Origin: Eledone cirrhosa
Lineage: Eukaryota
Direction of reading: 5' to 3'
Length of the DNA stretch: 64,000 bases
Assembly (NCBI GenBank): GCA_964016885.1
Contig: OZ024745.1
Location: forward strand, 116,250,001-116,314,000
Shown: piece by piece, positions 45,464 through 59,155 of the stretch
Position numbering within the stretch: the stretch's first letter is position 1
Layout: each line of letters begins with the position of its first letter
Translations under genes and position numbers: made by a program
The notes under the pieces: model-generated
The model's database searches: none
The model's input: only the letters and a program-made list of their open reading frames with translations
What the model was told of the DNA's origin: nothing

Positions 45464-45648
45464 AACGAGTAGGATCCCGACGGCTGAGCTCAAGCCGTTT
45501 CGACGGCTATTAGTCCAGAATTAGCCGTCGAAACGGCTTGAGCTCAGCCGTCGGGGTCCTACTCGTTCCTATTACCCACTCTACTACCCTAAGTATTGAG
45601 TATTTTGGTGCCTTATGGTCCACTTGGTTCCTTACCACATTTCCTTCG
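45464..45648. mobile_element. Family C mini-element (hammerhead stems II and III, core replaced by inversion)
   Basis: GACGGCTA..TAGCCGTC-GAAA-CGGCT TGAGCTC AGCCG-TC. Copies at 47135-47322, 50602-50782, 33482-33529 and tail-only 50805-50884. Confidence 0.75.
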
Positions 45649-45696
45649 TTATATATATATAAATATATATATATATATATATATATATATATATAT

Positions 45697-45825
45697 AGTA
45701 ATAATAATAAATTTGAAAATCCAAAGAGGGCTCGATAAGGATAAATATATATCAAATATATAAGATCCCGTTAAGGGTGAAAGCAACGATTCTTTGCTTA
45801 AACTTTAATCTGTTATTTTAATAAA
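45697..45825. mobile_element. Family B mini-element (inverted tail joined to hammerhead at AAGA)
   Basis: Left part matches 40921-40995, right part matches 41259-41323. (TA)n flanks. Confidence 0.75.
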
Positions 45826-46339
45826 TATATATATATATATATATATATATATATATATATATATATATATATATATATATATATATATATATATTACTCT
45901 GGGAATGTATCTTACATTGCCCATTGAGTGAGCTGAGATACAACCGGTACTGGCATTGATAAATATGGTGGGTCCGTCAACCCTTATTATTATTATATAT
46001 ATATATATATATATATATATATATATATATATATTGATGATGCTGGTAGTATATATATATATATATATATATATATACTACCAGCATCATCAATATATAT
46101 ATATATACTCGAGTCCGGAAACTATTATAGGCACCCGTTTTATGTGTATAGCTATGTGTATATATATATATATGTATATAGTGATGATGGTGGTGGTATA
46201 TATATATATACATATATATATATATATATATATATATATATATATATATATATATATATATATATATATATATATATATATATATATATATATATATATA
46301 TATATAAATGAAAAGTATAGAAATATATATATATATATA

Positions 46340-46421
46340 TATTTGGTCATCAAGTATGAAATTTGTAGAAAATCGTATTTTTCTACCAATTTCTATAAAT
46401 TTCATGTTTGACGACCCAATA
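46340..46421. mobile_element. ~82-bp palindromic MITE copy
   Basis: Same TIR family, inside (TA)n. Confidence 0.7.
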
Positions 46422-47134
46422 TATATATATATATATATATATAAATATATATATATATATACATATATATATATATATATATATATATATATATATATAT
46501 ATATATATTGATGATGATGATGGTGGTATATATATATATATATATCATCATCATTTTACGTCCGCTTTTCCCTTCTGTTGTTTCCGGTATTCAAGGGGGT
46601 TACGTTTCTAGAGCACCCGCAAATAGTGAACAACCGCGAATATTGAACGTGGTCCCTAAAAATGCCTATAAAGTTCAAAATATAACGTAAAATATAATAT
46701 AAAAACAAGGTGCGTCTTATGCAAAGGGGCGTCCTTTAAGCCGGCAAATAAGGTATATTGTTTTTAATGATTTAGCGTTTATATTGCCATGAAAAAGGCA
46801 CAAAAATGTGGTAGTTTCCACTTATGTTCTTAGGGAAATTCCGCGAATTACAGGAACCGCGAATGTTGGGACGGCGAATGCCGGGAGCACCCAATATATA
46901 TATATATAAATATATATATATATATATACATATATATATATATATATATATACATATATATATATATATATATATATATACATATATATATATATATATA
47001 TATATGAACGGAATAAATGAAACGAAATTTCACTTCTGGTGAATCCATACGTACATATATATATGTGTGCATGTATGTATATATATATATATACATATAT
47101 ATATATATATATATATATATATATATATATATAG

Positions 47135-47322
47135 TAACGAGTAGGACCCCGACGGCTGAGCTCAAGCCGTTTCGACGGCTAATTCTGGACTGAATTAGCC
47201 GTCGAAACGGCTTGAACTCAGCCGTTGGGGTCCTACTCGTTCCTATTACCCACTCTACTACCCTAAGTATTGAGTACTTTGGTGCGTTATTGTCCATCTG
47301 GCTCCTTACCACATTTCCTTCG
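47135..47322. mobile_element. Family C mini-element
   Basis: Palindrome centred on GACGGCTAATTC-TGGACT-GAATTAGCCGTC (47174-47203), plus tail and (TA)n flanks. Confidence 0.75.
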
Positions 47323-55160: not shown

Positions 55161-57535
55161 TGGTTTCTCATTTAGGCACATGGTCAACAATAATTGGGGG
55201 GAGGGGAGGGGAAGTCTATTAAATCGACTCCAGTGCATTATTGTTGCTTAAAGATGAAAGACAGAGCTAACCTTGATGGGATTGCCTTTGACCCTTACGC
55301 AGTCGACCATATAAAGTAATGCACTGGGGTCTATTTACACGACTTTTTCTTTCCCCAACAATTGTTGGTTATGTGCCTAAATCAGAAACCATTAAGTTAT
55401 TTATTCTTCATTGGGATTCTTTTAAAGCATTGTTCACGAATCTATGACGATTAGATTTTTGTTCACATTTTAATAAGTGTTTCTACTTTTGGCACAAGGC
55501 CACCAATTACCTCAATGTATTACTGGTACTTTATTTTAACGACCTCGTATGGATGAAAGGCAAAGAAATATTGCTGCAATTAAATAAAAAAACTGAATCA
55601 AAACCACTACAGAAAATACCTTCGTACCAGATATCATTCAACGGTGGTCTTTGTGCAAATAATATCAAAGGTATGATAATTTTATTTTTCTAACCCACCC
55701 AACCACTTACAAGCCTAAGTTACACAAAACTCACCAGACAAAATACATTTACTCAGTTAAATAAAATTGAAATATAAATTTAAACCACAATCGTAACGCC
55801 TTCATACCAGAGACTGTTCCACGCCAATCTTAGATCACACAATATTTTTTTAAATCCTTCTTCCTTTTTCTCTTTCTCGTAGTCTTTGATAAACTTTTAA
55901 TTCTCTCATTAGCTGTATCGGTAGAGGATCAGATGCCATGCTTTGTAGCATAGAGTTACGGCCCTTTGCAATCTGAGTTCAAATCCCGCCGATGTTAACT
56001 TTGCCTTCCATCCTTACGGGGTCGATAAAATAAAGCACCAGTAATATACTGGAGTAATTGCTGGCCTTGTGCCAACAATAGAAACAATTATTACGTTCAT
56101 TTTTCTTTTATATGATTTTGTTTCATTACATACTTTCCTCACATTCGCCGCCGCTCCTGTGTTTTTTTTTACCACATTTGGTTCCTCACTTCTTTATCAA
56201 CTTCGTCTATATTCCTATTCCTATTATTCAATACCTGTAGAATCCATTCGCCTTTTAATACCATATCCTCTCTGTTTCTGTATACTCATTTTTCTTGTAT
56301 CGTTTCATAACACTTTACTCTTTTCCAGCCTCTTTCTCTAATTTACATCTCTTTCCTCTATGTCAATTACACAATTAAAGGGAAATCTATTTATCTATAT
56401 AGTGCCTATAATTCACAACTCCTTCATAATACATCTACTCACGCCCATCCTTCATTATTTTATCAATTTTATCACTACCTTTCTTCATCTTATTTAATGT
56501 TCTTATATTCCTTTATTTAACTCGTGGTTCCTCAGATTCATTTTATATAATTTTTCTTCATTCTTTTTTTTTTCTATTTTCCACAAATTACTTTTTCCGT
56601 TTCCCCACAAATTTGCATATTTTTGTAACTTAGTTTTCGTTCTATCTTCCTATGTCACTCCTTCTCTTCTTGCACACTTCCATTCTACCCCTCTCTTCCT
56701 CCACCTTCTTCTCTCTATTACTACCCTCTCTCTCTTCCTCTCGCTGTCTGTCTTTCCGTTACTATGAAGTTTTCAGTAGCACTATTAAGATTACAGTAAC
56801 GATACATGTGAAAAAAATGAGGATTGCTAAAAAGACAATCTATGATATAGATATCAAATAGATAACATATAGAGATAAAATATACGAAGAAATGGCGGAA
56901 AAGTATTGTTGTAAAGATACATCAATCCTTGACTTTCTTTGATATTCTCCCTCTTCTTGTCGCTCCGATTATAGCCGTATTTCATTTTATATTAATTTAA
57001 ATCAATTACAATAATTTTCTTCCATATTGTCGTTAGTTATTGGATATATATATATATATATATATATCCGTTACTTTAAGATGAATGTGTTCTATTTATT
57101 TGCTAATCATTCTAACTCACTATCTATTTTTGGATCTCCATTGCGTTTTGATCTATTGTGTTGTGGTTGTTGTCTAAAGATGAATCACTGGTAAGTATAT
57201 ATAAAGAGATAACTATAGATTGAGAGTCAGATAGATACATTAAGAGGTATCTAGATATATATGTATATATGGGTATATGTTGTATATGGGAGTGAAGGAT
57301 CTCTAGCCTTCGTCAGAGCACATTTCTAGGAAAAGCAACTCAGGAAACTGGGATAACTCCGACATAAAACCTGCGGCTCAGTAGATACCGATGATGTTGA
57401 TCTTTTCTTATTTTCGGGTTATAGCTACTGTCGTTCAGAGAGTGGGATTGGCTCAGTGCACAGTCTTTCCTCACTTTAAAAAAAATCTTCACGCACAGAC
57501 ATTGCACGAAAGCATTAATTAATCATTATTATTAA

Positions 57536-57880
57536 TGTCGGTGGATTGGCAGTATCGGTAAGGGTCGGACGCCATGCTTTGAAGCATAGAGTTACCTCCC
57601 TTTATGATCTGAGTTCAAATCCCGCCGAGGTTAACTTTGCCTTTCATCCTTACGGGGTCGATAAAATAAAGTACCAGTAATGCACTGGAATAATTGCTGG
57701 CCTTGTGCCAAAAGTAGAAACAATTATTATTAATGTCGGTGGATTGGCAGTATCGGTTGAGGGTCGGGCGACATGCTTTGATGCATAGAGTTACGGCCTT
57801 TGCCATTCTTAGTTCAAATCCCGCCGAGCTTAACCTTGCCTTTCATCCTTACGAGGTCGATAAAATAAAGTACCAGTAAT
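57536..57880 (+). mobile_element. Two tandem SINE copies
   Basis: Both start ATTATTAATGTCGGTGGATTGGCAGTATCGG. Confidence 0.85.
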
Positions 57881-58029
57881 GAAGTTCTAGTTAACTTTAT
57901 TTAGTTACCTACCTAGCTATGTGTGCTTGCACACTTGTAAAAATTATCCCCTGTGATTTTTTCATATATTTTAATATGTTAATCAATTTCTAGTTGTTAT
58001 ATATATATATATAGAGAGAGAGAGAGAGG

Positions 58030-58270
58030 GATTTAGAAAAAATGAACCTAAGGATTAAAGTAATAGAAAATCCAGGAGAAGTAGGACACACCCCTGAGGA
58101 AACTCCCTGTACTTATGGAAACTTTAGAGTCTGTAAAGTAAACGGACTAATAAGTTAGAAATGTAGACTGTAACTACGATGCTAAGAGGGACTGTGCAGA
58201 AAGAAGATAAAGACATACATTGGAGAGAGATGAAAGGAACACTGATGAGAAGGTAAGGGTGGGAAGCCTT
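58030..58270 (+). pseudogene. Possible decayed PLE GIY-YIG fragment
   Basis: LRIKVIENPG..PCTYGNFRVC then (other frame) LCRKKIKTYIGE, with stops. Abuts (TA)n(GA)n. Confidence 0.35.
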
Positions 58271-58942
58271 CATCAGTGCTATACCAAAATGCGATACTGG
58301 AAAACGGGGCCTCTATAGATGCTGTCCACACAGAGTTGACGCAACACAGAAACATTAGAGAGGCTACATATATAATAGCAGATACTGCTAAACTGAACAG
58401 AAAACACGAGAGGAATGGTAACCGGTCACAACTTAAAAAGTGAAGACAGAATCAGGGGATAAGAAGACAACAACAGCAGAAGATACTAAGCCACACACAC
58501 ACATATATTACACACAGAGATATAACAATACAAAGACACACAAACACAGACGAAGGCGCAGGTGCAAACACATGCGCAGAATCGAATCACGGAGCAGATC
58601 GATGCTGGAGCCAGATCTGTGACATGAAGGAGGATCTGAAGCCGACCATCCGTGAAACTAGGGTAACGGTCGATATACAATAAAACAGGTTAAAATGAAA
58701 CATCGTCACATCGTACTTCACACACACACACATAATATATATAAATGCCAGACAAACCAAAACAGAAATACAAACCCTCCATCTCAATTTTACTTTTGAA
58801 AATCATAAGAACCGTGAAAGCGGTAAAGTAAATAAATATTCTTAAAAAACTCCAGTTGCATTTTCAATTTCTTTTCCTTATACGTGCAGGACATCTCTTT
58901 AAAAAAACTCATTTTCTTATATATATATATATATATATATAT

Positions 58943-59155
58943 ATTTATTTATTAAATAACAGATTAAAGTTTAAGCAAAGAATCGGTGCTTTCACCCTTA
59001 ACGAGATCCCGTTAAGAGTGAAAGCAGCGATTCTTTGCTTAAACTTTAATCTGTTATTTAATAAATATTTGCTCTACGGTTCTTATATATTTGATATATA
59101 TTTATCCTTACTGAGCCCTCTTTGGATTTTAGTCTTCAAATTTATTATTATTACT
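58943..59155. mobile_element. Family B mini-element (inversion centred on GATC at the core/stem II boundary)
   Basis: ..TTTCACCCTTAACGAGATCCCGTTAAGAGTGAAAG.. with arms matching 41260-41323 and full tail. (TA)n flanks. Confidence 0.75.

Follow-up and report, generated by a model that had tools for sequence, protein, structure and literature searches.

Endonuclease-containing (EN+) Penelope-like elements (PLEs) carry a hammerhead ribozyme in their pseudo-long terminal repeats (pLTRs), insert into (TA)n, and bear a head-to-head inverted copy of their 5' part, with a tail on one end only and palindromes at the junctions. The parts of PMC8557442 and PMC3846280 that were accessible describe tails of 30–40 nt and an inverted arm that is variably truncated and attributed to self-priming on an antisense template. 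For the PLE protein of PAc Poseidon, the accessible part of PMC11167929 reports two internal reverse transcriptase (RT) start sites bounding the tail, extension of both strands, a predicted dimer and the use of uncleaved RNA in vitro; inverted junctions and the RNA 5' end are not addressed in that part. Here we describe PLE insertions in a 64-kb stretch of the 3.0-Gb genome of Eledone cirrhosa (the window; positions 116,250,001 to 116,314,000 of contig OZ024745.1), a genome with abundant TA/CA microsatellites. Comparison of the window with itself revealed many short inverted units within (TA)n, which on their sequence are inverted PLE pLTR insertions. They resemble the described EN+ PLEs in all the features listed above, but their tails are ~80–135 nt long, and in each family the arms end at a single edge with a cap-like G, a pattern that argues for a capped template in sense orientation. 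The inverted architecture, the uncleaved templates and the two start sites were known already from these papers; the elements are known and the mechanistic evidence is new. Compared with the ribozyme-driven inversion proposed in an earlier sequence-only reading of the window, an edge particular to each family, which likely marks the start of transcription, is in our view probably the better explanation of the data.

Junctions were sampled with tail-only queries for each family, for which the best 40 or fewer of up to 2926 candidates were scored per query, and from 1.244 Mb of genome blocks that included the window. Arms were mapped by BLAST against natural long copies and retained if they were at least 20 nt long, at least 88% identical and had their 3' end at either family start site; duplicates, arms less than 45 nt from a locus edge and 17 arms reaching the end of the reference were excluded. 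Between 59 and 220 arms were examined per family, and the candidates for families B, C and E number in the thousands. The first family C query began in stem II, which biases junction position; its 30 loci were omitted from the position counts and retained for the G, shared-variant and 179-pair edge counts only. For family D the tail query from the window had no matches, and the search was rerun with a query from another locus (L011), of which 20 of the 40 listed places were examined. Subfamily references were added for family C and reduced false ends at +10 and +54 that arose from subfamily differences. Positions are given in nt relative to the A at the edge of each family unless the hammerhead core is named as the reference. 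Arms of all five families (A–E) fell into two 3'-end classes, tailed and tail-less, ~80–135 nt apart, a pattern that the pair of RT start sites reported in the accessible part of PMC11167929 would predict.

The upstream ends of the arms formed one sharp edge in each family. Ends at −5 to +5 compared with those in the 30 nt upstream numbered 30 and 0 in family A (n = 97), 21 and 6 in B (n = 118), 106 and 7 in C (n = 220), 12 and 2 in D (n = 63), and 20 and 0 in E (n = 59). The same comparison in the genome blocks alone gave 12 and 0 in A (n = 30), 7 and 1 in B (n = 44), and 25 and 0 in C (n = 60). The mode of the end positions was 0 in families A, B, C and E and was tied in D, while ends more than 35 nt upstream of the edge numbered 8, 29, 8, 0 and 25 in A to E. 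A sharp upstream edge followed by a downstream tail of ends is the shape expected of a template end. No peak was observed at the predicted hammerhead cleavage site, with 1, 2, 3, 1 and 0 ends within ±2 nt in A to E compared to 9, 12, 12, 7 and 1 in the flanking 20 nt. This result is consistent with uncleaved templates, as the sequence-only reading had proposed after noticing that arms cross the predicted cleavage site; the arms do so at the places it gave, and the use of uncleaved RNA had already been shown in vitro (PMC11167929, accessible part).

All five edges consist of an A matching YYANW, which has a background of 5.3% per position and which we take to be an initiator-like context. No structure was predicted upstream of the family A edge (0.0 kcal/mol over 90 nt). 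A G lay directly before the edge in 13 of 24 filled junctions, i.e. those with untemplated fill, compared with 23 of 123 elsewhere (p = 6e-4), and in the loci fetched after this idea was noted the filled junctions gave 6/9 versus 9/38 (p = 0.02). Untemplated G at the 5' ends of full-length L1 and SVA copies has been attributed to copying of the cap (PMC3287187, accessible part). The accessible part of PMC2377424 places the transcription start of the Drosophila virilis element at position 371, within the pLTR and ~300 nt ahead of the tail; the distance from the edge to the end of the tail here is 137–339 nt. We think it likely that the edge, a family-specific, initiator-like A, is where the capped RNA of the element begins, and that it is not a feature of the hammerhead.

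Several findings weigh against this identification. The excess of G was not seen in unpaired arms (4/14 versus 38/187, p = 0.5) or in junctions without fill (6/27 versus 29/141), and it was not significant over all of the later-fetched loci (6/19 versus 29/136, p = 0.38). Seven distinct family E pLTRs run on into the open reading frame (ORF), and none of them starts at the edge: six extend upstream of it and one starts at +38; ORF-side pLTRs of this kind would need read-through templates or strand transfer to the homologous 3' pLTR. None of the 18 family D arms from random blocks falls in the peak, which represents one young subfamily; the family B peak is broad; and no edge hotspot was evident in the family G loci seen, which are few and long-armed. 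The edges were picked from the same data and the five families are possibly related, so that the YYANW matches are not five independent trials, and the start site itself is deduced from DNA only. The latter point, the weak G signal outside filled junctions and the ORF-side pLTRs would also suit an edge produced by RNA processing, a nuclease or an element-specific RT stop, or one at which short, non-autonomous master RNAs begin; short non-autonomous pLTR derivatives do exist (bioRxiv 10.64898/2026.07.22.740005, accessible part). We consider such origins improbable. The hammerhead cleavage site was rejected as the edge because no peak of ends was found there, and a 3' splice site was rejected because B and C arms retain the AG and A, D and E have none at that position. 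Moreover, the initiator-like context was found in five of five families, and short family E copies are 97–100% identical to a reference taken from an intact autonomous copy.

The arms are paired in a regular way. In random blocks, 46 pairs combined a tailed with a tail-less arm, one arm had a tail-less partner and no pair was tailed on both sides; 7 and 4 arms had like partners in the whole unbiased set. Pairs are thus almost always one of each, whereas no strand difference in start-site use was reported for PAc Poseidon (PMC11167929, accessible part). The 163 tailed plus tail-less pairs of the five families in the unbiased set comprised 64 junctions with an overlap of at least 1 nt, 22 blunt junctions and 77 with fill. 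The tail-less (mirror) arm reached further upstream in 78 of these pairs, the tailed arm in 42, and both reached equally far in 43. In the 78 pairs with the further-reaching mirror arm, neither arm can have been copied from the other, barring a later loss of the centre. With the stem II-query family C loci included, the mirror arm reached the edge (±1) in 43 of 179 pairs, and in nine of the 179 both arms were at the edge with a spacer of at most 3 nt. The two arms of an insertion share variants: mismatches within insertions compared to the rate between insertions were 0/71 versus 0.44 in family E, 31/539 (0.058) versus 0.40 in C, 18/331 (0.054) versus 0.40 in A, and 1/11 versus 0.22 in B. Shared variants fit a single RNA that served twice as template, or a pair of RNAs from the same source locus. 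Tail-only arms ending near the second start site were also found (6/58 in A, 8/64 in B and 10/123 in C).

An RNA 5' end at the edge would also be compatible with a single cDNA that folds back and self-primes (PMC3846280, accessible part), in which case later deletions of the centre would generate the asymmetry and endonuclease cleavage would set the tail-less end. The shared variants, the common palindromic centres and the 64 overlapping junctions agree with such a mechanism. Long palindromes are also known to lose their centres. Against it, the tail-less arm extends further upstream more often than the tailed arm (78 versus 42 pairs), the tail-less arms at the edge include some with their own extra G, and the nine pairs with both arms at the edge leave no room for a loop. 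In addition, both start sites are used by the RT in vitro (PMC11167929, accessible part). We regard a folded-back single cDNA as an unlikely source of the inverted arms.

The sequence-only reading had instead proposed that the ribozyme dictates the inversion, by making RT stall at the hammerhead core or stem II or fold back there. The landmarks on which it relied were present: the family C palindromes at 45464–45648, 47136–47322 and 50603–50787, the two family B joins with short overlaps, the family A join at 42021, the family E mirror arm ending in stem II at 50245 and the family D arms near 32900. The mirror-arm ends at 42021 and at 45764 (family B) do lie in the core, but the tailed arms at these two joins end outside the core, and the partner of the family E mirror arm starts upstream of the core. 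The earlier list mixed tailed-arm ends with mirror-arm ends, and the rule drawn from it fails for window cases that it omitted: the family B junction at 41154, the family A join at 42295–42297 and family G at 29160–31400. Junctions do cluster far above chance, but the clusters are family-specific and not tied to the hammerhead: relative to the core, the densest window of ends is at −67 nt in A, −2 in B, +47 in C, −83 in D and −4 in E. The edge A itself is located 69, 5, 88 and 7 nt upstream of the core in A, B, D and E, and 45 nt downstream of the core start in C. The hairpin on the axis of the family C palindromes is not the native stem II either, as it consists of the two mirror arms themselves; in long family C copies the native 5' strand is a different sequence, and their stem II encloses a loop of ~36 nt. 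CTGANGA, which was expected in uninverted family C copies, occurred in none of the 14 long arms with a landmark, where a variant hammerhead core was present instead; the sequence-only reading had named this absence as a finding that would count against it, and taken literally it does.

Some counts nevertheless favour a role for the ribozyme. One end falls between the core and GAAA in 66 of 71 C pairs, 19 of 36 B pairs and 8 of 15 E pairs, the stem II loop of family C is predicted to form a hairpin that includes the edge, and downstream of the peak the ends are denser inside the hammerhead in B (p = 0.014) and C (p = 2e-7). The excess in B and C is confounded because their ribozyme abuts or contains the edge, and fall-off from the edge explains it. 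Only 8 of 28 A pairs and 2 of 13 D pairs touch the region from core to GAAA, and no excess of ends was found in the core and stem II of A (15 per 45 nt versus 27 per 99 nt outside, p = 0.51) or D (14 per 41 nt versus 32 per 121 nt outside, p = 0.40), nor inside the hammerhead of E (p = 0.12). The lack of predicted structure upstream of the family A edge, the non-canonical cores of B and C and the wide range of peak offsets also argue against it, and simple fold-back cannot produce a mirror arm that reaches further upstream. Inversion dictated by the ribozyme is largely refuted by families A and D, and we consider it very unlikely; its stems may have had a minor local role as microhomology donors. 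A single pre-inverted master from which every copy of a family descends, or palindromes that are assembly artefacts, can safely be set aside. Only 6 of the 163 junctions are repeats whereas 157 are distinct and thus independent events, as the sequence-only reading required; the copies have unrelated flanks, lie on many chromosomes and have asymmetric arms (tail on one side) with age-related differences.

We return to an edge that marks the capped start of the element RNA, with two RTs that are each primed by one target strand, begin at the two start sites and copy one uncleaved RNA to its end before the cDNAs are joined; on the sequence evidence we hold this to be the probable course of events. 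Transcription would start inside the pLTR, and the protein would bind its own RNA, still uncleaved, at the initiation region nearest the 5' end, ~140–340 nt from the cap. A protein dimer would nick both target strands and prime two cDNAs, one starting at the tailed site and the other at the tail-less site. Both cDNAs would run off the RNA 5' end, sometimes adding a C opposite the cap, and host end-joining, with microhomology, short fill and small 3' trimming, would unite their ends head to head. On this view the hammerhead owes its closeness to the junction solely to the nearby start site.

Two well-known priming reactions bear comparison with this scheme. In L1 twin priming, two cDNAs primed from both target strands on one RNA are joined by microhomology; L1 arms cover non-overlapping parts, whereas the arms here usually cover the same stretch to the same edge, and the tail-only arms stopping near the second start site do occur. 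Minus-strand strong-stop DNA of retroviruses and LTR elements is a short cDNA that extends from an internal priming site to the cap and has homology to the 3' repeat. The likeness here would lie in the short cDNA from an internal site to the cap and in its homology to the 3' repeat; the PLE product would be target-primed, without a tRNA primer, and strand transfer is only proposed. A strong-stop-like product may even be the rule, with the PLE dimer copying one capped, sense, uncleaved RNA twice from two internal starts to the cap, the joined products forming the inverted pLTR, and transfer of one product to the 3' pLTR regenerating the pseudo-LTR. We offer this generalization tentatively and would not give it an even chance. 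In the accessible literature, with most subscription papers outside the search, no paper was found that ties PLE inversion junctions to a transcription start, a cap or twin priming, and the pairing of one tailed with one tail-less arm was likewise not found.

The ribozyme cores differ between families. An earlier count of core types that had been filtered on the core motif was circular and was replaced by a landmark count. The CTGANGA core is canonical in 58 of 61 A, 36 of 39 D and 38 of 47 E copies, while family B has the non-canonical CAGAAGA in 52 of 57. The 14 long family C arms with the landmark consist of nine with CTGAGAA, two with CTAAGAA, two with TTGAGAA and one with TTGACAA; four more rows were without the landmark. 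CTGAGAA corresponds to a C3-A8 mismatch, and 3 of the 14 have the U3-A8 form, a covariant of the hammerhead core that has been described (PMC4209133, accessible part). Most B and C cores lack the CUGANGA (or U3-A8) form expected of an active type I hammerhead; L009, L117 and L134 are among the long copies of the two families with non-canonical cores. In family B the core overlaps a good 3' splice-like motif, and splicing might alter this core, as described for D. virilis. An Rfam scan of the window at E ≤ 1 returned no hammerhead family among 126 matches, only microsatellite and hairpin noise. A further hammerhead-bearing pLTR family with a canonical core (family F) was observed in the window at 38885–38995 and 11474–11651.

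Families A to D were placed by architecture only, from pLTR-side sequence examined to 125–600 nt upstream of the core. Family E has an open 813-aa ORF at one locus (L211) in which an RT-type DD motif, a C-terminal YIG motif, RWR (RWK-like), DKT and CNCRNKTNC (CxCX5C) were recognized by eye. The protein had no match in Pfam at E ≤ 0.5 except a weak domain of unknown function. The RWK-like, DKT and CxCX5C motifs, an endonuclease without CCHH, (TA)n insertion and a canonical core assign family E to the Hydra clade as far as motifs can tell. Members of that clade are <3 kb in the accessible part of PMC8557442, whereas the family E unit is ~6.9 kb with a long microsatellite-rich 3' region. At the same locus a direct pLTR repeat (1585–1889 and 8171–8475) flanks the ORF, in addition to an inverted arm. 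This element (1991–4480 within 1585–8475) appears to be an intact, very young Hydra-like PLE, as 40 of 40 scored tail matches were 100% identical. It has an Asn/Thr/Lys-rich insert between the RT and endonuclease, and possibly a short intron between the tail and the ATG. The depth of contigs from four runs of unknown kind rises in bins around the family E edge (X1 and X4); this depth gives no copy number, X1 is possibly the assembled sample, and it was not used as evidence. A decayed piece similar to the linker region of the family E ORF was recognized in the window at 52100–52800 from its translation by eye.

Short non-coding hammerhead units derived from pLTRs have also been described as non-LTR retrozymes (bioRxiv 10.64898/2026.07.22.740005, accessible part). 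Retrozymes form tandem head-to-tail arrays and carry the full ribozyme, whereas the units described here are dispersed head-to-head pairs or single arms, and short family C copies lack half of the ribozyme. Identity with non-LTR retrozymes was rejected on the basis of this arrangement. Different PLE families were stacked in one (TA)n run at six loci (L096, L126, L150, L155, L392 and L397), where each newcomer had used the TA flank of an element already present. A tandem array of 455-nt family G units lies at G000:C4:321065867–321071580 (L271–L283), with a switch of orientation mid-array (eight minus and five plus); the unit is part of the pLTR tail plus the ORF start, without the hammerhead.

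The positions of the insertions in the window are listed in Table 1. The window also contains a very abundant repeat of ~190–200 nt, often in head-to-tail dimers and with a tRNA B-box-like motif, which is probably a short interspersed element. Minisatellite arrays with units of ~95 and ~40 nt are located at 7663–8432 and 9165–10839, and three copies of an ~80-nt palindromic element in (TA)n at 25848–25930, 33605–33682 and 46342–46419.

Table 1. Features of the 64-kb window; signed numbers are nt from the family edge
Feature	Coordinates	Strand	Details
Family B tail-less single arm	4124..4194	-	starts at edge (-1) in (TA)n
Family G	29160..31425		5'-truncated PLE; GIY-YIG C-terminus ~29775-30251 (plus strand); U3-A8 hammerhead at 31253; long mirror arm 29160-29662; junction of the arms within CA/TG microsatellite
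Family D pair	32154..32468		junction 32376/32377; ends +47 and +93
Family D pair, diverged subfamily	32731..33022		complex centre
Family B pair	40923..41324		junction 41154; ends -72/-97 (77 and 102 nt upstream of core); edge A at 41251; core CAGAAGA at 41256-41262
Family A pair	41804..42115		junction 42021; tailed arm minus, +39; mirror arm +72 (inside core)
Family A pair	42164..42546		join 42295-42297; ends +5/+28 (64/41 nt upstream of core); full hammerhead, core at 42359
Family C copy 1, tail-less mirror arm	45464..45509	-	inner end +10 from edge
Family C copy 1, tailed arm	45510..45648	+	edge A at 45512; hammerhead 3' half (GAAA, stem III, GTC site); ~80-nt tail 45568-45648
Family B pair	45698..45825		tail-side arm minus, ends +87; tail-less arm plus, from 45762 (+8, within core); 4-nt overlap 45762-45765
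Family C copy 2, mirror arm	47136..47191	-	ends exactly at edge (0)
Family C copy 2, tailed arm	47192..47322	+	starts at +6
Family E pair	50161..50585		tailed arm starts exactly at edge A (50244); core CTGAAGA at 50251; GAAA ends 50377; mirror arm 50245->50161 ends in stem II
Family C copy 3 (other subfamily)	50603..50787	-	tailed arm 50735->50603 from +2; mirror arm ~50736-50787; tail-side piece 50805-50884 adjoining
Family B pair	58946..59154		near-perfect palindrome; ends +9/+10; 5-nt overlap (59004-59008)
B-box-like repeat	15835-16247, 19255-19665, 21674-22072, 54804-55160, 57525-57881, 61585-62212		

Natural junctions, of which the genome holds hundreds, place a direct constraint on how PLEs insert, through the sharp edge, the pairing of tailed with tail-less arms, the shared variants and the cap-like G. 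They remove the ribozyme as the cause of inversion, and two abundant families (B and C) have spread with non-canonical cores. As family E has intact young copies, the model is testable in vitro. If the edge is the RNA start, it would explain how PLEs make inverted ends. If the strong-stop-like product is the rule, genomic junction maps would give the promoter of every PLE family and settle the question of sense versus antisense template, and the ribozyme would play no part in the architecture of the insertions.

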